Shown here: positions 1 through 13,349 of the stretch, piece after piece
Layout of the letters: each line of letters begins with the position of its first letter
Position numbering within the stretch: position 1 is the first letter of the stretch
From: a virus
Lineage: Duplodnaviria; Caudoviricetes
DNA length: 29,277 bases
Strand: one strand, 5' to 3'
IMG/VR virus record: IMGVR_UViG_3300020016_000034
Span: 1 to 29,277 of that record
The notes under the pieces: generated by a model
What the model was told of the DNA's origin: nothing
The model's input: the letters and a program-made list of their open reading frames with translations, nothing else
The model's database searches: none
Translations under genes and position numbers: made by a program

Positions 1-549
1 CAACCACGCACGGCGACGGAGGTGCTCGCCCCGGCCCCAGTGGACTTTGAACGGCAGCTCGAACCACGCACAATTCAAGAGGCCAAGCAACTCGCGGAGT
101 GGATGTTTGCCGCGCGCCTGTTCAACGGGTACGGCAACGCGCCTGCGGTGCTGGCGACCATGATGGCGGGCCGGGAGCTGGGCTTTCAGGCGATTGCCTC
201 CCTGCGGGCGTTCCACGTGATCGACAACAAGCAATCACTGGCCGCCGACGCGATGCGGGCCAAAGTGCTGCGGTCGGGTCTCGCCAAATACTTCCGCCTC
301 ATTACATCGTCCGACGAGGGCGCGACGTGGGAAACGTGGCGCGTGAACGACCCAGAACCGACGCCCTTCACCTTCACGATCGTCGAAGGCCGACGCGCGT
401 ATCCCGGCGATGACCGGGCATGGGCTAAAAGCAACTGGGGGGCGCGCCCGAAGGATATGGTCATCAAGACCGCCTCGGCGAAGCTGTGCCGACTAGTGTA
501 TGCCGATGTGCTGTTCGGGCTCTACGCGCCCGAGGAGTTGCGCGATTGA
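1..549 (+). CDS. RecT/Red-beta-like single-strand annealing protein (5'-truncated)
   Basis: Frame open from base 1; motifs MAGRELG..ASLRAFHVIDNK..L.ADAM and W..RPKDM...A..LCRLVYADVLFGLYAPEEL resemble phage RecT-like proteins. Confidence 0.7.
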   Translation, partial: QPRTATEVLAPAPVDFERQLEPRTIQEAKQLAEWMFAARLFNGYGNAPAVLATMMAGRELGFQAIASLRAFHVIDNKQSLAADAMRAKVLRSGLAKYFRLITSSDEGATWETWRVNDPEPTPFTFTIVEGRRAYPGDDRAWAKSNWGARPKDMVIKTASAKLCRLVYADVLFGLYAPEELRD

Positions 550-1007: not shown

Positions 1008-1286
1008 ATGGCCGATTTCAGGCCCTGCGCAGTGCCGTCCTGCCCCGCACTGGCGGTCGGCGGGGTGTACTGCCCGATTCATCGGTACGCGCAGCCAGCG
1101 ACGACGAGCGCCATCTGTCCGCGCTGTCACAAGGGCATCGCGCGGGGCCAGTTGACACGGACGCTGCCCGGCGTGTGCCGGACGCTGATTCATGCGTGGT
1201 GTTCACTCGAGGCGCCGGCCGTCGTGCGCGCGCCGAAGCGGAAGAAGGCGAAGGCCCGGCCCCTGTTCGATGAGCCGACGCCATGA
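1008..1286 (+). CDS. Small Cys/His-rich (Zn-finger-like) phage protein
   Basis: Starts immediately after the previous stop; CAVPSC..YCPIH, CPRC and HAWC motifs. Confidence 0.6.
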   Translation: MADFRPCAVPSCPALAVGGVYCPIHRYAQPATTSAICPRCHKGIARGQLTRTLPGVCRTLIHAWCSLEAPAVVRAPKRKKAKARPLFDEPTP

Positions 1287-1648
1287 GGAGCGGTCATAAG
1301 TACGGCGCGGTCGCGACGGTGGTCGACAACGTCCGTTTTGCCTCGAAGGCCGAGGCGCATCGTTATCAGGAGCTGCGCGTGCTCGAGCGCCTCGGCGAAG
1401 TGACGGAGCTCGAGCTGCAACCAAAGTTTCCGTTGTATGTCTCGCTGATGGGATCGAAAACGGTCGCGCCGTGCCTCGGCGAGTACCGCGCCGACTTCCG
1501 CTATCGCTTCGGGCCGCAGGGGCTATTGAAAGTCGAGGACGTCAAAGGCTACGAAGTGCCGTTGCAACGGTGGAAGCGGCGACACGCGGAGATCCAATAC
1601 GGGATCAGTGTCGAAGTGATTCGGATGCGTCGGGTGAGGGGGAGGTGA
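1283..1648 (+). CDS. DUF1064-family PD-(D/E)XK nuclease
   Basis: KYGAVATVVDNVRFASKAEAHRY, LELQPKF, YRADFRY and VEDVKG match the DUF1064 pattern; ATGA overlap. Confidence 0.85.
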   Translation: MRSGHKYGAVATVVDNVRFASKAEAHRYQELRVLERLGEVTELELQPKFPLYVSLMGSKTVAPCLGEYRADFRYRFGPQGLLKVEDVKGYEVPLQRWKRRHAEIQYGISVEVIRMRRVRGR

Positions 1649-3670: not shown

Positions 3671-3674
3671 GGCC

Positions 3675-4622
3675 ATGCCGAAAGCCAATCCGACCAAATC
3701 CGCAATCAGCACGTTCGACCTGTTCGAGCGGTTTCCCGACAAGGAAGCCGCCCGGCTCTACCTCGAATCCCGCCTCTGGCCGAACGGCGCGGTGTGCCCT
3801 ATCTGCGGCTTGGGCGAGCGCATCACCATCCGGAAGGCTGGGTACTACCGCTGCAACCAGTGCGCGGAGGACTTCACCGTCCGCACTGGCACTGTCATGG
3901 AGCGGTCGCACATCCCGTTGCACAAATGGCTCTACGCCATGTACTTGCTCGTCACGGCCCGGAAGGGTATCTCCAGCCTCCAGCTCTCCAAGCAGATCGG
4001 CGTGACCCAGAAGTCGGCATGGTTCCTGTTGCACCGACTCCGTGAGGCGTGCGGCAAAGACCTCCGCAAACTCCAGGGCATCGTCGAGATTGACGAGACG
4101 TACATCGGTGGGAAGGAACGGAACAAGCACAAGGACAAGAAGCTGAATCTGGGGCGTGGCCCAGTTGGCAAGACGCCAGTCCTCGGCATGCGCGAGCGAG
4201 GCGGGCGGCTGAAGGCGATGACGCTGACCGATACCAGCGCCGAGACAATCCAGTCGCTCATCTACGCGAACGTCGAATATGGCTCGCATCTGCACACCGA
4301 CGAAGCGCCGGCCTACGCCGACATGGACGGCCTGTTCTATCGGCACGACGCCGTCAACCACGGACAAGGCCAGTACCGTCGGAAGAACGTCACCACTAAC
4401 AGCGCCGAGTCCTGCTTCGCCGTGATGAAGCGCGGCATCTACGGTGTCTACCACTTCATCAGCCCGAAGCACACCGACCGCTACGTAGACGAGTTTGCCT
4501 TCCGGCTGAACGAGGGCAACGTCGAACGGCCGACGATGGCCCGGCTGGACTCGTTCGTGAGCGGAATGGCGCTGAAGCGGCTGACCTACGCGGACCTGAT
4601 CGCCAATTCGGAGGGTAACTAG
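3675..4622 (+). CDS. IS1595-family (ISXO2-like domain) transposase
   Basis: N-terminal Zn ribbon (RLWPNGAVCPICG..YRCNQC), HTH (KGISSLQLSKQIGVTQKSAW) and catalytic motifs EIDETY, TDE, TNSAE, YVDEFAFRLN. Confidence 0.95.
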   Translation: MPKANPTKSAISTFDLFERFPDKEAARLYLESRLWPNGAVCPICGLGERITIRKAGYYRCNQCAEDFTVRTGTVMERSHIPLHKWLYAMYLLVTARKGISSLQLSKQIGVTQKSAWFLLHRLREACGKDLRKLQGIVEIDETYIGGKERNKHKDKKLNLGRGPVGKTPVLGMRERGGRLKAMTLTDTSAETIQSLIYANVEYGSHLHTDEAPAYADMDGLFYRHDAVNHGQGQYRRKNVTTNSAESCFAVMKRGIYGVYHFISPKHTDRYVDEFAFRLNEGNVERPTMARLDSFVSGMALKRLTYADLIANSEGN

Positions 4623-7361: not shown

Positions 7362-8149
7362 CTCCCCCGCCCTCTCCAGAGGCGCTGATCCAGCGGCTAC
7401 GCGCGCTGAGTGGTGTGTTTGCTTCCGTGGCTGAACATCTGGCGGGTCTGACATCTGATGCCAGGCTTGAATACGGCCGGAACGAGCTACTAGCTTGGGA
7501 GCGCGATGGGGCACTGCTGATGACGGAGGCCGCCGATGCGCTCTCCTCATCCCAAGAGGCGCTCCGAGCCAAGGATCAAGAAATCCAAGAATGGCGAACT
7601 CGTTGTTGGAAGGCGAGAGATACGAAGCCCTGCGAAGTATGCGAATGGCCGCAACCGATCGACAACGAACACTTCATTTGCGAGTGCTGCGGATTCCAAC
7701 CGGGTTACGACAGACCAGAATCGTTTACGTGGAATGGCGAGTGGTGGGCTGGCTGGAAAGAGGATAAACCGCCGCGTATTGTGCGACAACTCACGGAGGC
7801 GCTCCGAGCCGCCGAGTCGAAGCGAGACGAGCACTGGGAGGACCTTGCCGAGGTCGCGAAATACGAAGCTGCCGAATCAGCCCTCCAGGCCAAAGAGCAG
7901 GATGTCGACAGACTTTGTCGGCTGACTGAGGAATGGGAAGCGAAGGGTGCTGAATGGGTCAGTGCGCTCCAGGCCAAAGAGCAGGAGATCGCTCGTCTGC
8001 GAGCCGCGTTGAAGGCAGTCGAATGCACGGCTCGTAAGGATTGCTGGTGCGATCGATCCTGGGACGCATTCCAGTACGGCCATCAACGCAAGTGCCAATT
8101 TGCCAATGAAGTGCTCGCGCTGGCCTCGTCAGGAGCTGAGACGCCGTGA
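7358..8149 (+). CDS. Mosaic coiled-coil/Zn-finger accessory protein (Ea22/ead-like architecture)
   Basis: Repeated EALRA and SALQAKEQ coiled-coil units separate a CEVC..CECCGF module and a CWCDR..GH..C module. Confidence 0.7.
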   Translation: MTPPPSPEALIQRLRALSGVFASVAEHLAGLTSDARLEYGRNELLAWERDGALLMTEAADALSSSQEALRAKDQEIQEWRTRCWKARDTKPCEVCEWPQPIDNEHFICECCGFQPGYDRPESFTWNGEWWAGWKEDKPPRIVRQLTEALRAAESKRDEHWEDLAEVAKYEAAESALQAKEQDVDRLCRLTEEWEAKGAEWVSALQAKEQEIARLRAALKAVECTARKDCWCDRSWDAFQYGHQRKCQFANEVLALASSGAETP

Positions 8150-8316
8150 CGGAGCGGCGCTGTCTGACGCCGCGCGAATACGCGGACGAACGCCGCATTA
8201 GCCGCAAGACCGTCTATCGCCAGATCCGCGCGGGGACCGTGCCGGCTGAACGCATCGGCCGGCAGTGGCGCATCTACGTGCATGTGCGCCCGTCTGCCGG
8301 CCTGAGTGCGGTCTAA
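8146..8316 (+). CDS. Excisionase/MerR-like winged-HTH DNA-binding protein (56 aa, absent from ORF track)
   Basis: Manual translation MTERRCLTPREYADERRISRKTVYRQIRAGTVPAERIGRQWRI matches the HTH_17 pattern; GTGA overlap. Confidence 0.85.
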   Translation: MTERRCLTPREYADERRISRKTVYRQIRAGTVPAERIGRQWRIYVHVRPSAGLSAV

Positions 8317-8450
8317 TCCAGCCCCTTCGCGATGTAGCGCCGAATCAGCTCGAGCACGACCCAGCGGAGGGACACACCCTCCGCTGCCGCGCGGGACTTG
8401 AACGCGCGCCAGAGTTCGGCATCGACGTTGCGGAGAATGAAACTAGCCAC
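8313..8450 (-). CDS. Ribbon-helix-helix (Arc/FitA-like) regulator (45 aa, absent from ORF track)
   Basis: Manual translation MASFILRNVDAELWRAFKSRAAAEGVSLRWVVLELIRRYIAKGLD. Confidence 0.8.
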   Translation of the reverse strand: MASFILRNVDAELWRAFKSRAAAEGVSLRWVVLELIRRYIAKGLD

Positions 8451-8694
8451 GGGTCACAGCTCCGTCATCGACGAACACGAAGCAATAGCCACGTTTTGTG
8501 GCCCCGCCTGCCAGAGCGCCCGTCCATTGCATTTTGACGCAGAGGGCCTGTGCGGCCTTCCGGTGCACCGCTTCGCCGCTCAGTTCGTGCGGGTAGGGAA
8601 TGGTCACGCGGTTGCCGTCCAGGTCACTGGCGACGATGCGCGACCCGCGCCGATCCGTGGCCCCGAGATAGTGCGTGGAAATCGCTTTCATCAT
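8443..8694 (-). CDS. Small phage hypothetical protein
   Basis: MMKAISTHYLGATDRRGSRIVA...GYCFVF resembles a recurrent phage family; overlaps both neighbours. Confidence 0.7.
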   Translation of the reverse strand: MMKAISTHYLGATDRRGSRIVASDLDGNRVTIPYPHELSGEAVHRKAAQALCVKMQWTGALAGGATKRGYCFVFVDDGAVTRG

Positions 8695-9011
8695 GCGGCC
8701 TCTTGGTTTCGCTGAGTTGAATCGGTACGGAGCCGACGTTCCCGTGCGGCCTGACAGAGCGCCCAATATTGCCGTTTCGATTCCGGGCTCGCTTTGCCGT
8801 TCAGGCACTCGACCTGTTCGAGCAGGGCCAGCCAGTCGCCTTCGTCCGCTCGCCCGGCTGCGAGTCGAACATGGAAGCGGATATCTTCGACGTGCGCGGT
8901 CTTCGCGTAGTAGGCGCGCAGTTCTGCGTCCGTCATCTCGGAAAGCGGTTTGCTCGGCGTGACCGCTTTCGGTTTGGGATACGCGCGTCCGCAGCAGGGG
9001 CAGGCGTTCAT
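8691..9011 (-). CDS. Hypothetical phage protein
   Basis: MNACPCCGR start with ATGA coupling. Confidence 0.6.
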   Translation of the reverse strand: MNACPCCGRAYPKPKAVTPSKPLSEMTDAELRAYYAKTAHVEDIRFHVRLAAGRADEGDWLALLEQVECLNGKASPESKRQYWALCQAARERRLRTDSTQRNQEAA

Positions 9012-9391
9012 CGCGCACCCTCTCGGGTCTGCTGAACGAAGCGCACAGCGGTCTGAAGCGGGCCGAGAGCGGTCAGCATCCATGAGGGGAGTTCACGAAA
9101 CCGCGCAAACACATCTTCGAGGTATTCGGCGCGAATCGATGGAGACTGGCCCGGCGCAGTAAATGTAGTTACGAGAATGCCTCCGTGTGCTCTGTTCACT
9201 CGGTAGGCATCGAACCTGTAGCGGCCATACTGACACGGCGCAGGCTCAGCGGCTTTCGCGGTCGCGTCGGGGCGTTCGCAGGCGACACATTGCAGGGCCA
9301 CTAGGAACACACCATTGGCACGGTCGAGCGAGTCACAACGGGTCTGGAGTTCGGCGTAGGTTGCCTTACGTGGTCGGAATGATTTTGCCAT
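9008..9391 (-). CDS. Hypothetical phage protein
   Basis: 127-aa ORF coupled to the downstream gene. Confidence 0.6.
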   Translation of the reverse strand: MAKSFRPRKATYAELQTRCDSLDRANGVFLVALQCVACERPDATAKAAEPAPCQYGRYRFDAYRVNRAHGGILVTTFTAPGQSPSIRAEYLEDVFARFRELPSWMLTALGPLQTAVRFVQQTREGAR

Positions 9392-9595
9392 CTGCTTGCA
9401 TCCTTTCGAGGACAGCGTGATTTAGGTTTCCGAGTGTTAGTAGTCGTTCCAATCGTCTTCTGCCGTGCGCTGTCGCATGGGCGTCGGAGAGTTGCGGTCT
9501 AGCGTAGAGTTGTAGGTCGTTCGCTCTGTTCGTGGCGTCGCCAAGTGATCGCAGCTCGGCCTGTTCGGGGCAGAGCGAGCTGGTTCGGGCATGGT

Positions 9596-9802
9596 CTACG
9601 CCTCCCCCTGCAACCGGTCGATGAGCGCCCGAGCGTTGTCCAGCGCCTTCGGCATCTCCGTCAGCTTGCCGTTTCGATCTTCAAGCCCGGCCGCTCCAAC
9701 GAGGTAGCGCAGCGCGTCCAACAGATCGGGAGCCGCCGCCACGAGGCGAGCGTTCGCGGCAGGCGCGATGCCCAGTCCGTGTCGATTTGTTTGCTTCATC
9801 AT
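9596..9802 (-). CDS. Small phage protein with ANARLxAAAPDLLxAL motif
   Basis: AGGAG SD before MMKQ; the motif is common in phage early small proteins; first gene after the leftward promoter. Confidence 0.7.
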   Translation of the reverse strand: MMKQTNRHGLGIAPAANARLVAAAPDLLDALRYLVGAAGLEDRNGKLTEMPKALDNARALIDRLQGEA

Positions 9803-9869
9803 CGCGTTTCGCTCCTGTGTTCCGGTTGCCATGGGGTTGTTCAGGTCAGCGTGATTGCCGATAACAATG

Positions 9870-9897
9870 ATTATAAAGATGTCTCTTAGGATGTCAA
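9870..9897 (-). promoter_or_regulatory. Consensus sigma70 promoter of the leftward operon
   Basis: Minus strand TTGACA-16 bp-TATAAT in an AT-rich patch; overlapped by a GACATC direct repeat. Confidence 0.85.
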
Positions 9898-9928
9898 GCG
9901 GTATCTGCACTTCTTTTCAAGAAATCGA

Positions 9929-9968
9929 TGGGACAGGATGCCCCACAGTGCCCCAGAGTGGGCCATGA
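9929..9968 (+). repeat. Four 10-bp-phased imperfect direct repeats
   Basis: TGGGACAGGA / TGCCCCACAG / TGCCCCAGAG / TGGGCCATGA. Confidence 0.6.
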
Positions 9969-9998
9969 AAAACGCAAAATCAACAAGTTAGGCGCAGA

Positions 9999-10207: not shown

Positions 10208-10570
10208 ATGGCTCGTCTCACCGACGAGCAAAAGGTCGCCATCCTCCAACTTGACAAACTCGGCAAAGAACAACTCGAAATTGCTCAACTGGTTGGCTGT
10301 CATCAGTCGAGCGTCTCGAGATGGCTCAGTCAATTCGTTGACACCTCACACGCCGCAAGAGCATACGCCCTCGGCAACGCCCTTCCGACGATGGAATCGG
10401 TACTTCGGTACGGCAAAGCTGCTGATAAGGTCAACGTACTCAAGGGGATAGGCGTTCTCACCGAGCAACAGAACACAGGACTGACCATTCAGATCGGCGG
10501 TACGGGTGATCTCAAGGTCGCCGTCCTGCTTTCGCCACACACAAGTACACCTCAGGGCGAAAGTGAGTGA
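10208..10570 (+). CDS. HTH protein, putative terminase small subunit (alternative start 10142)
   Basis: RLTDEQK..I..L..GKEQLEIAQLVGCHQSSVSRWL HTH, helical core and C-terminal beta strand LTIQIG; lies upstream of terL. Confidence 0.55.
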   Translation: MARLTDEQKVAILQLDKLGKEQLEIAQLVGCHQSSVSRWLSQFVDTSHAARAYALGNALPTMESVLRYGKAADKVNVLKGIGVLTEQQNTGLTIQIGGTGDLKVAVLLSPHTSTPQGESE

Positions 10571-10591: not shown

Positions 10592-10619
10592 GTGTCTGAT
10601 AAGCAATCTTATGTTAACT
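10592..10619 (+). other. dif-like XerC/XerD recombination site
   Basis: GTGTCTGATAA-GCAATC-TTATGTTAACT has 11-6-11 architecture; right arm is 10/11 identical to the E. coli XerD arm TTATGTTAAAT. Confidence 0.8.
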
Positions 10620-10786
10620 CGACTAAGTACCTGAGTACGACGGACTTAGAGAGAAGTACACGAAGGTCTTCGTACATCGACGTCGAGCGACGAAGGAGCG
10701 AAGACACGCCCGGCTTCCGGCTTCCGGCGGACGACCCCGGCGAGGGACCCAGCCGGGAGCTGACGAGGGATTTGTTGAGTTTCTGA

Positions 10787-11576: not shown

Positions 11577-11759
11577 CCCGGCGGCCCGCCCGGCGCCGCG
11601 GTCGTGGTGGCAGTGTCCGGACACGGCCTTTGCGGTCACGGCGGCGGCGGAAGCGCCCAAGATGCACGCGCGGACGCCGCCGCGGGAACAAGAGCAGGCG
11701 TGGGCCGACGAGATGGCCCAGTTGAGCGCCACGACCCGTGAGCAGATGCGCGGACCGCA

Positions 11760-13349
11760 ATGAGCGACCTCGCGACCGATCCGATCGGGACGCCGCACGA
11801 GACGGCCACGTGCGCGTGGTGCCCGTCGCCGCTGGTCGTCGCGGAGGTCGAACGCACGCGCGCCTGGGTCTGTCCGACCGACTGGGCGCGACAGACGGCA
11901 CACGCGATCTTTAGTGTGCGCAAAGGCGTCCGGACGTGTCACTACGTCCCGCTCCCGAGCCAGTGTCTGCTCTATGAGACGCCCGCGCGCTACGTGCTCT
12001 GGGGCGGACAGGCGGGGCCGGGCAAGTCGCACGGCGTGCGCTGGTGGCTCTACGACCGAAGCCTCCAGACGCCCGGACACGAAGCGCTCCTCTTGCGCGA
12101 GAACTGGGACCAACTCGATGTGACGCACCTCCGCAAGATGGAACACGAGGTGCCACAGCTTGGCGGGCGGTTCTTCAAGAGCGACCGGAAAGTCGTCTTC
12201 GGGAAGGGCAGCGACGAGTCCATCATCGATGCCGGCCACATGGCCGAAGAAGGAGCCGTCACGCGGTACTTGTCGACGGAATACGGGGCGATTGTCGCCG
12301 ACGAAGCGAGTCTCTATCCGGTCGCGCCCGATGGCACGACGCCGCTGGCGGAGCTCTCGACGCGCGCCCGCAAGGTCTACACCGACCGATCGGGCAACCG
12401 CGTGCCCCCGCGATTTATCCCGGTGACGAATCCCGGCGGGCCGTCCGGCGACTGGCTCCGGTCGATGTTCATCCGCCACGAACCCGACCTCGGGCTCTAT
12501 CCGCAACTCCGCACGAAGTATCACCCCGACGAGTGGGTGTACCTCCCGGCTCGCCTCGACGACAACCCGTACATGGACCCCGCCTATGCGGATTCGCTCG
12601 CCGTCCTCCGAGGCTGGCGCTACCAACAGATGCGTCTCGGCGATTGGGATGTGTTTCCCGGCCAGTTCTTCGAGGAATGGGACCCCAGTGTGCACGTCAA
12701 AGACCAAATGGTCGATCCACGACGTATTGACCATTTCGTCTCGATGGACTGGGGCCACGCGGCGCCCGGCTGTTTTCTCTGGTGGGCCTGTCTGCCCGAC
12801 GGGAGGTATCACATCACCCATGAGTGGAAATTCCATCGCCTCGCGGACCAAGACATCGCGGCGGGCTTCCATCAAAGGAACAAAACGTACGGCATCGAAA
12901 AAGTCCGCTACGTGGTCGTCGACCCCAGCCTTGGCAACAAGGATGGTCGGGGCGACAGTCGTCATGGACAATCGCGTGCGGAAACTCTCCGCCGTTTGGG
13001 ACTCAACATCCGGTTGGGTGATAACGACCGACCCGCCGGATGGGCTCGTATCCGCGCATTACTTCGAGGGCACCGCGGAGAGCCACCGCACCTTACCGTT
13101 GCCCCTGACTGCACGTACCTGATTCGCTCGCTCCCGGCGCAGAAGTCTGACCCGCACGACCTCGAAGATATCGACACCGGCGGCGATGACCACGCCGCCG
13201 ACACCCTCCGCTACGGCGCGATGAGCCGGCCGGCGCCGACGACGCACTACGCCCCGACCGTGAAGCTGCACCCGCTGCTCGAAGAGGCGCTCGCCGCCTC
13301 CCGCGCGGGGGTGACGCTCGGGTCCGAGTCCATGCGGAGGCACACATGA
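11760..13349 (+). CDS. terL: Terminase large subunit
   Basis: Walker A GGQAGPGKS, Walker B IVADEA, motif III TNPGG, nuclease motifs SMDWG and DDHAADTLRY. Confidence 0.95.
   Translation: MSDLATDPIGTPHETATCAWCPSPLVVAEVERTRAWVCPTDWARQTAHAIFSVRKGVRTCHYVPLPSQCLLYETPARYVLWGGQAGPGKSHGVRWWLYDRSLQTPGHEALLLRENWDQLDVTHLRKMEHEVPQLGGRFFKSDRKVVFGKGSDESIIDAGHMAEEGAVTRYLSTEYGAIVADEASLYPVAPDGTTPLAELSTRARKVYTDRSGNRVPPRFIPVTNPGGPSGDWLRSMFIRHEPDLGLYPQLRTKYHPDEWVYLPARLDDNPYMDPAYADSLAVLRGWRYQQMRLGDWDVFPGQFFEEWDPSVHVKDQMVDPRRIDHFVSMDWGHAAPGCFLWWACLPDGRYHITHEWKFHRLADQDIAAGFHQRNKTYGIEKVRYVVVDPSLGNKDGRGDSRHGQSRAETLRRLGLNIRLGDNDRPAGWARIRALLRGHRGEPPHLTVAPDCTYLIRSLPAQKSDPHDLEDIDTGGDDHAADTLRYGAMSRPAPTTHYAPTVKLHPLLEEALAASRAGVTLGSESMRRHT

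Follow-up and report, generated by a model that had tools for sequence, protein, structure and literature searches.

A dif-like Xer site beside the terminase genes in a family of tailed phages

Introduction

Why should a tailed phage carry, just after its probable small terminase gene, a sequence laid out like the dif site of a bacterial chromosome? The question is raised by a single virus record of 29,277 bp (~63% GC), the whole of which was analysed here and is called the window. A 45,976-bp contig (L557) carries a large terminase gene (terL) 100% identical to that of the window; the genome is about 46 kb, of which the window covers 29.3 kb. A sequence-only reading of the record had proposed that host XerCD might act at this site, either to integrate the phage at host dif or to recombine phage DNA with itself in resolving dimers or circularising a terminally redundant genome.

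In phages without cohesive ends or a recombinase of their own, circularisation and processing are usually ascribed to homologous recombination. No description of dif-like sites at terS or in the terminal repeats of tailed phages was found in the literature covered (mostly open-access, bioRxiv supplements lying outside it, and including the available parts of 10.1101/633727 and PMC3556154). The literature found on the topic deals with IMEXs (filamentous, tailless and microvirus) and with plasmid sites, or consists of reviews.

Results

The 28-mer and its surroundings

The dif-like 28-mer GTGTCTGATAA-GCAATC-TTATGTTAACT was confirmed at 10592-10619 on the + strand, starting 21 bp past the stop at 10570 of the HTH gene that had been read as a putative terS (Table 1). 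The pattern ATAA-N6-TTATGTTAA, at ≤2 mismatches, has one match in the window against a shuffle mean of 0.03, with a match in 3 of 100 shuffles. Phage genes had been placed on either flank of the site, and profile matches bear this out by identifying terL together with an SU10-like portal, a capsid and an adaptor. The window had also been said to hold no recombinase gene: no integrase or resolvase match was obtained among the 36 window ORFs scanned (a scan that did not include PF00589 itself), PF00239 is absent from the 29.3-kb window of the ~46-kb genome, and the tyrosine recombinases of four relatives, used as tblastn queries, matched nothing in the window. No integrase adjoins the excisionase-like gene within the window, and Rfam and tRNA scans of the window gave no matches.

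Table 1. Features of the window, with coordinates, strand and supporting evidence
Feature	Position	Strand	Evidence or remark
RecT-like annealing protein, partial	22..549	+	phrog_4171, E 1e-10
Holliday junction resolvase	1283..1648	+	phrog_190, E 4e-26; DUF1064
Excisionase-like HTH_17 gene	8146..8316	+	PF12728, phrog_1840; end of early genes
Probable terS	10208..10570	+	HTH at the N terminus, helices, conserved 'IQIG' segment at the C terminus; 10142 as alternative start
Left arm, putatively XerC-binding by homology to dif	10592..10602	+	1.40 bits/base, 28 distinct family sites
6-bp central (strand-exchange) region GCAATC	10603..10608	+	hypervariable in family, 0.30 bits/base
Right arm, putatively XerD-binding by homology to dif	10609..10619	+	1.32 bits/base in family
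Inverted pair CTAAGT-N15-ACTTAG, degenerate IHF-consensus-like, candidate accessory (bending) site	10623..10649	.	register with relatives
CCGGCG...GGGACCC motif, candidate packaging or end signal	10724..10750	+	GGGACCC near family sites
Terminase large subunit (terL)	11760-13349	+	phrog_2, E 1e-21

The gene upstream of the site is probably terS, a label that rests on position and architecture and not on a family match. It precedes terL, its slot is occupied in other relatives by a phrog_4102 terS, and a similar 'V/IQIG' segment ends both its own alignment set and the phrog_4102 set. Its family matches are to generic HTH families only (HTH_23); hhalign against the phrog_4102 set gave 90% probability with the alignment limited to the HTH, and 7 of the 26 alignment members match phrog_2538 terS weakly (best E 3e-4). 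A structure model of the product has helices at 6-17, 22-29, 33-41, 47-68 and 71-81 and a C-terminus of low confidence. Fold searching with this model returned generic HTH matches, with G20C terS at Z 6.2 (rmsd 1.5, 42 aligned), while an Atlas search returned viral HTH clusters.

Several other features of the region were observed. An IS1595-family (ISXO2-like) transposase lies among the early genes at 3672-4622. A block of small leftward genes (8443-9835, - strand) and an AT-rich divergent region (9850-9990) both come before terS, and a second strain in run X2 has 226 bp replacing 381 bp at 9397-9779. All four sequencing runs and L557 have an extra C after position 11588, where the window is probably one base short through an assembly error, which disrupts a small ORF ahead of terL.

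Conservation of the site in the terminase-selected family

Family loci were chosen by terL alone, and a weight matrix was built from their sites. In L002, the closest relative (terL 84% identical), a site 11 bp past the homologous gene retains 20 of the 22 arm bases; its centre differs from that of the window and its flanks give no blastn match. Accepted sites with a 6-bp centre score 23-40 bits by leave-one-out, against a reversed-sequence maximum of 14.6. With other centre lengths allowed, a site was found in 36 of 80 terminase-selected viral loci (L002, L036, L053-L130), scored without leave-one-out against a reversed null whose maximum is 17.7 bits over 1.84 Mb; of the 37 rows without a site in the terL tree, 23 have <3 kb of DNA upstream.

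The sequence-only reading had named conservation in the terS region of relatives as a check on the site, and the check came out in its favour. In family counts that are not phylogenetically independent, 31 of 40 loci with a recognisable terS (a few being near-duplicates) have a site between -235 and +95 bp from the terS stop, at the 3' end of the gene, while 8 have none and 1 has it 2.6 kb away. An independent held-out metagenome set yielded 7 new terS-bearing loci, 5 of them with a site within -118 to +96 bp of the stop. Both orientations relative to terS occur, in several relatives the site lies inside the terS frame, and sites are scattered over a quick terL tree. L065 and L081, whose terL genes are nearly identical, bear different sites in opposite orientation.

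The conserved part is the pair of arms. Over 28 distinct family sites the flanks carry 0.15 bits per base, well below the arm values of Table 1, and the arms are retained beside diverged flanks across terL identities of ~30-84%. The centre comes in 27 kinds among the 28 sites and is 7 bp long in 6 of 34 distinct family sites. The XerCD-like reading of the 28-mer is upheld by this pattern and by its 22 arm bases, one off several candidate host sites, all of which argues that it is a real dif-type Xer site with arms under selection. The site is dispensable in the family, since 8 of the 40 terS-bearing loci lack it.

A further 79 prophage-like terL loci, taken from genomes and almost all at ≤31% identity, gave no site, and there was no convincing site near terS or terL in four distant cultured relatives (HTVC115P, CRP-2, HMO-2011 and Jinkies). 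In one site-less clade, L059, L062 and L068 have at the same place a short palindrome that opens with an XerC-arm-like sequence, possibly a decayed or different site. In six relatives (G360, G386, G356, G364, G358 and G363) terL is split at about residue 320-326, between its ATPase and nuclease parts, into two overlapping or abutting ORFs.

Comparison with host sites

Comparison with the dif sites of candidate hosts, which had been suggested as an aid to host assignment, points to one class of Acidobacteriota. The phage arms differ by 1 base of 22 from several Acidobacteriota sites, and in that class (the class of G314) 83 of 121 genomes match the arm pattern at ≤2 mismatches, a subgroup exactly. 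Against the predicted dif of Acidobacteria Ellin345, as given in the part of PMC3025954 (supplement 2) that was available, the right arm agrees at 11 of 11 bases and the left at 9 of 11. The host-genome sites lie at 0.55-0.63 of the length in 6 of 9 large contigs; GC skew was of no help at the candidate host sites (10/29). From the resemblance of the arms the host of the phage is probably a member of that class. None of the conclusions draws on four genomes flagged as unpublished.

A metagenome-assembled genome (MAG) of that class, G654, contains a contig (G654:C344) that holds a family member, with a terL match at E 3e-158, a capsid 55% identical and a site at the terS stop; only phage genes are present on it, and bin membership by itself says little about the host. 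The centre of this family site is TGACGC, against TAGATA in the best site of G654 itself. That best candidate (L534, G654:C2:8218) lies between parAB and lptF, which is unusual for a terminus site. A contig identical to the window is binned in a Gemmatimonadales genome. A Gemmatimonadales host was rejected, the dif candidate of that genome differing at 6 of 22 arm bases, and mis-binning is more likely.

The centres tell phage and host sites apart. None of the 28 phage centres is identical to any of 41 host centre types, in a set of 59 host sites that was picked by pattern and, with L534 beside parAB, does not consist purely of chromosomal dif sites; within that set, 29 of 59 share their centre with another host site. 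T occupies centre position 5 at 48 of the 59 host sites vs 5 of the 28 phage sites, and centre GC is 0.59 in phages vs 0.40 in hosts. The nearest host centre is one base off the GCAATC of the window, whose XerC-side triplet is found at none of the 59 host sites. For 19 of 28 phage centres their own XerC-side triplet recurs in some host site, the hosts having 20 kinds of triplet. That the site might work as a chromosomal, FtsK-dependent dif was rejected: it is in a phage genome, and the E. coli KOPS motif, which may not be that of the host, gives no polarity in 8 relatives (22 toward the site, 19 away).

An IHF-like element and a GGGACCC motif beside the site

Next to the right arm lies an inverted pair (Table 1) that resembles the IHF consensus, WATCAANNNNTTR. 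The element of the window has 2 mismatches to it at 10624-10636 and, by hand count, 3 at 10636-10648, and that of the closest relative has 3, while other relatives match with 0-1 mismatch at the same offsets. At ≤1 mismatch within 50 bp, and in counts that ignore kinship, the consensus accompanies 14 of 33 family sites vs 55 of 660 in AT-matched background, and 13 of 31 other-phage sites vs 55 of 586; of the 59 host sites, 2 have it nearby; in the held-out set 1 of 5 sites has such a match. The offsets are stereotyped, at -36 on the XerC side (7 loci) or +2 to +4 on the XerD side (8 loci), and the element moves with the Xer site when the latter is inverted (L065, L096) or lies at a changed distance from the terS stop. 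All five candidate hosts have HU/IHF-family genes (3-11 matches). We infer that the flanking element is an IHF site; alternatively, some other dimeric protein could bind the inverted pair.

On the terL side, exact GGGACCC occurs within 300 bp of 15 of 29 family sites vs 2.6% of random windows, at 42-143 bp from the site, and a looser pattern finds it at 4 of 5 held-out sites. Its strand is fixed to the terS-to-terL direction even when the Xer site is inverted, and it is also present in the site-less L103 and L104. The motif is a candidate end or pac signal. The sequence-only reading had assumed a site just downstream of pac, an arrangement that was not recovered: the only candidate end signal lies ~125 bp to the terL side of the site.

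Similar sites in other phages

The exact arm pattern occurs at 45 IMG/VR loci. Thirty arm-pattern loci were scanned for their nearest ORFs, duplicates and family members excluded; 15 have a PHROGs terS or terL there and none an integrase, and the terminases belong to several unrelated families. Arms of E. coli type were found at 73 viral loci, 51 of them with the host centre TGTATA. Among 17 scanned loci with a non-host centre, 6 adjoin terS or terL and 4 are inoviruses; among 14 scanned loci with the host centre (selected, mostly larger contigs), none adjoins a terminase and 9 adjoin lysis genes. These nine (L351, L357, L364, L368, L373, L375, L378, L383 and L419) are enterobacterial viral contigs of 22-41 kb with the exact host dif (TGTATA) by endolysin and Rz genes, the site often lying near the contig edge. 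They are possibly tailed prophages at dif, a signature unlike that of the terS-linked sites.

In Erwinia phage Hena1 a dif-like site is present at 289-316 and at 148612-148639, that is, in both copies of the annotated 519-bp direct terminal repeat, and no annotated terminase lies in the 3.2 kb and 5.3 kb flanking it. The four other Vequintavirinae examined (4MG, PVP-SE1, LNA4 and SPLA5a) all keep a dif-like site at the same place, in records that carry no annotated ends, and the sites of this group (L395/L418, L421-L426) have a non-host centre. We take the Vequintavirinae to be virulent; phage 4MG grows on E. coli K-12. Because the Hena1 site sits in the terminal repeat and its relatives keep the place, the site seems to follow the genome end rather than terS as such.

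Recombinase genes, contig junctions and depth

Of 30 site-bearing records, 2 have the tyrosine recombinase domain PF00589, as do 2 of 10 without a site; G362 and G364 are site-bearing relatives with a tyrosine recombinase of their own. PF00239 was found in 1 of 28 records, a site-less one, and ParA (PF13614) over cut-off in 0 of 28, in a search that left ParB, ParM and Rep outside. All three profiles are absent from all 8 circular-complete site-bearing records, and FtsK-gamma was found in 0 of 32 records. The site-less G386 has a serine resolvase (G386:C1:30603-31034) ~4 kb upstream of terL and a weak tyrosine recombinase match; the resolvase might replace a host-Xer site.

At 60 host-site loci, covered for up to 16-20 kb each, no terL, terS, portal or capsid of the family was found. 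Contigs of four runs from two samples, possibly the source of this DNA, pass across the site and show neither a joint nor a loose end there, although contigs drop rare variants. In 61 relatives the ends of the contigs show no clustering at the site or around GGGACCC. In one case only, L001:1-26, a contig opens 2 bases inside the dif-like site, possibly at an assembly fork. Terminal redundancy was also sought in sequencing depth, and this line was rejected: Logan contigs are deeper over ~9.6-11.9 kb in only 2 of 4 runs (13.7 vs 7.2 and 9.3 in one, 15.6 vs 12.8 and 9.8 in the other), which was not taken as evidence because one run holds a second strain, the runs may be where this DNA comes from, and contigs cannot show ends.

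Discussion

Proposed use of the site

The reading that we favour, with a probability of roughly 0.6, is that host XerC and XerD recombine phage DNA with itself at the packaging end. The sequence shows host-type arms kept by selection around a free centre, a steady location at the 3' end of terS, an IHF-consensus element at set offsets from the arms, and complete relatives free of a phage recombinase. Judged by this, the host-Xer site would form there a small module that represents a new form of host-Xer use. Host XerC and XerD would bind the arms, and with a centre unlike that of the host, exchange would occur only between identical phage copies and spare the chromosome. A protein of the IHF/HU family would bend the flank and stand in for FtsK as accessory factor, the part that PepA/ArgR play at cer. 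A Holliday junction made first by XerC would be completed by XerD, by replication or by a phage resolvase, and the product would be a circular monomer. The resolvase encoded in the window could complete such an XerC-only exchange, and the RecT-like gene may offer an alternative, backup route of circularisation, which would fit the patchy loss of the site. Counterpoints are that the site is dispensable, that the IHF-like element of the window has 2-3 mismatches and 1 of 5 held-out sites has ≤1, that FtsK-gamma was not found in the 32 records, and that two site-bearing relatives have their own tyrosine recombinase.

The sequence-only reading had left open what self-recombination would serve. Self-recombination itself fits the data, whether for circularisation or for multimer resolution. 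The site may circularise an incoming genome that has it twice by virtue of a terminal repeat, a use favoured by the terminal-repeat site of Hena1. The position of GGGACCC on the terL side may count against it in the family of the window: were that motif pac, with packaging directed toward terL, the first headful would receive the site in a single copy. Processing of replication multimers before packaging is a use only slightly less likely, and both uses fall below even odds. A wider generalisation can also be put forward only tentatively: that many tailed phages, lytic ones included, bear a host-XerCD module at the genome end, composed of dif arms, a private centre and an IHF site, for circularising the injected genome or trimming multimers with neither a phage recombinase nor FtsK.

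Alternative explanations

The strongest competitor has XerC/XerD and IHF bind at the packaging origin as a scaffold or roadblock, without strand exchange, for example in shaping the terminase initiation complex, stopping FtsK or unloading SMC-type complexes. A free centre and 7-bp spacings (6/34) fit binding equally well, and the terS link spans terminase families. There is precedent as well, in the help that lambda terminase receives from IHF at cosB (PMC4856287, part available) and in the unloading of SMC by XerD at dif-like sites of B. subtilis and S. aureus (PMC9226527). The SMC-unloading sites described in the accessible part of the latter paper, however, consist of one full XerD site plus five inner bases, whereas here XerC-type and XerD-type arms are both kept at near-canonical spacing. 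The IHF-like element tracks the Xer site and not terS, and Hena1 has its site within a terminal repeat, the flanking 3.2 kb and 5.3 kb containing no annotated terminase. On balance we consider a role in binding alone improbable.

Integration at host dif by host XerCD, through an IMEX-type attP and perhaps by XerC only in the manner of VGJ with a partial centre match, is less probable still. Strand exchange by tyrosine recombinases requires homology in the centre, and ordinary integration is disfavoured because the phage centres never equal host centres and some are 7 bp long. The host-type arms, the excisionase-like gene and the lack of an integrase match in the window would all suit an integrating element, the lysis genes beside 9 of the 14 scanned enterobacterial loci with the exact host centre show that phages bearing such genes can have that centre, and the single contig L001 begins 2 bases into the site. 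The triplet matches of 19 of 28 centres point the same way weakly, given 20 host triplet kinds. Against them stand 0 of 28 centres equal to a host centre and 0 of 59 host sites sharing the triplet of the window, compared with the host centre in 51 of 73 E. coli-type viral sites. In several relatives, moreover, integration at a site within the terS frame would separate terS from terL. Neither the 60 host-site loci, which lack terL, terS, portal and capsid matches and showed no prophage of the family, nor the contigs of the four runs, which show no joint or loose end at the site, lend support to the integration that the sequence-only reading had entertained.

That the site resolves dimers of a plasmid-like prophage and is close to terS for no mechanistic reason is very unlikely. 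Plasmids do employ host Xer sites with accessory DNA (PMC5357621, in the part available), and 6 of 15 extra-site Acidobacteriota MAG loci scanned adjoin xis/integrase genes of other elements. Such a function would leave unexplained why unrelated phages keep the site within ~240 bp of the terS stop; ParA is over cut-off in 0 of 28 records, and Vequintavirinae carry the site too. As for a chance AT-rich sequence or a neutral relic, the 3 shuffles in 100 that matched the loose pattern speak for it, yet the conservation of arms and not of flanks, across terL identities of ~30-84%, refutes chance and makes this reading scarcely credible.

Comparison with known systems

Self-recombination by host XerCD would share features with several known systems and coincide with none. 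From chromosomal dif with XerC, XerD and FtsK (for the Acidobacteriota type, the available part of PMC3025954) the phage site has the 11-6-11 layout and arms within 1 base; it differs in adjoining terS, in a hypervariable, GC-richer centre that is sometimes 7 bp long, and in its IHF-like flank. With cer of ColE1 and psi of pSC101 it would have in common the host XerCD, an extrachromosomal self-by-self exchange, a centre of its own and accessory DNA by the core. In place of the conserved ~180-bp PepA/ArgR region, however, the phage sites have a short IHF-like element on either side, and the carriers here are tailed phages without ParA over cut-off. IMEXs (CTX, VGJ, TLC, gokushoviruses, GGI) likewise have a phage-borne dif-like site and no integrase of their own, and none was seen in the window; the centre of their attP is homologous to that of the host in whole or in part, and the XerD arm is often degenerate, whereas in the phage family both arms are kept and the centre has diverged. 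According to the part of PMC5357621 that was available, the attP centre of TLC is homologous to dif1, and VGJ attP, with its mismatch toward the XerD side, is integrated by XerC.

P1 is a tailed phage whose genome recombines with itself site-specifically, Cre/loxP circularising its terminally redundant DNA. Cre/loxP also resolves P1 multimers (PMC2409434, part available). P1 encodes its recombinase and a partition system, whereas here a host recombinase is proposed and the site abuts terS. Bacillus phage B83 has an XerC/XerD-family gene between terS and terL (PMC6669507), an Xer-family function in the same genomic slot; in the accessible part of that source this is a phage-encoded recombinase in a plasmid-like prophage, and not a host-binding site.

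Implications and dif-like sites of the host group

If the favoured reading is true, some phages would have a host-dependent route of circularisation or processing, and XerC/XerD and IHF would be host factors of lytic phages. The module would be a host-encoded counterpart of P1 Cre/loxP, its private centre serving as a self-recognition code that spares the chromosome. A dif-like site alone is poor ground for calling such phages temperate. The arms can also aid host prediction, here indicating one Acidobacteriota class and not the Gemmatimonadales bin.

Some Acidobacteriota MAGs themselves contain many dif-like sites, with 21 matches in G466, 12 each in G585 and G654, and 4 in G350:C365. Six of the extra sites (L431, L435, L436, L437, L438 and L440) have no IHF match at ≤1 mismatch; these adjoin genes of other mobile elements, namely an excisionase-like gene, a tyrosine integrase or both. 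The multiple sites of these MAGs are partly paired, recalling pdif modules.
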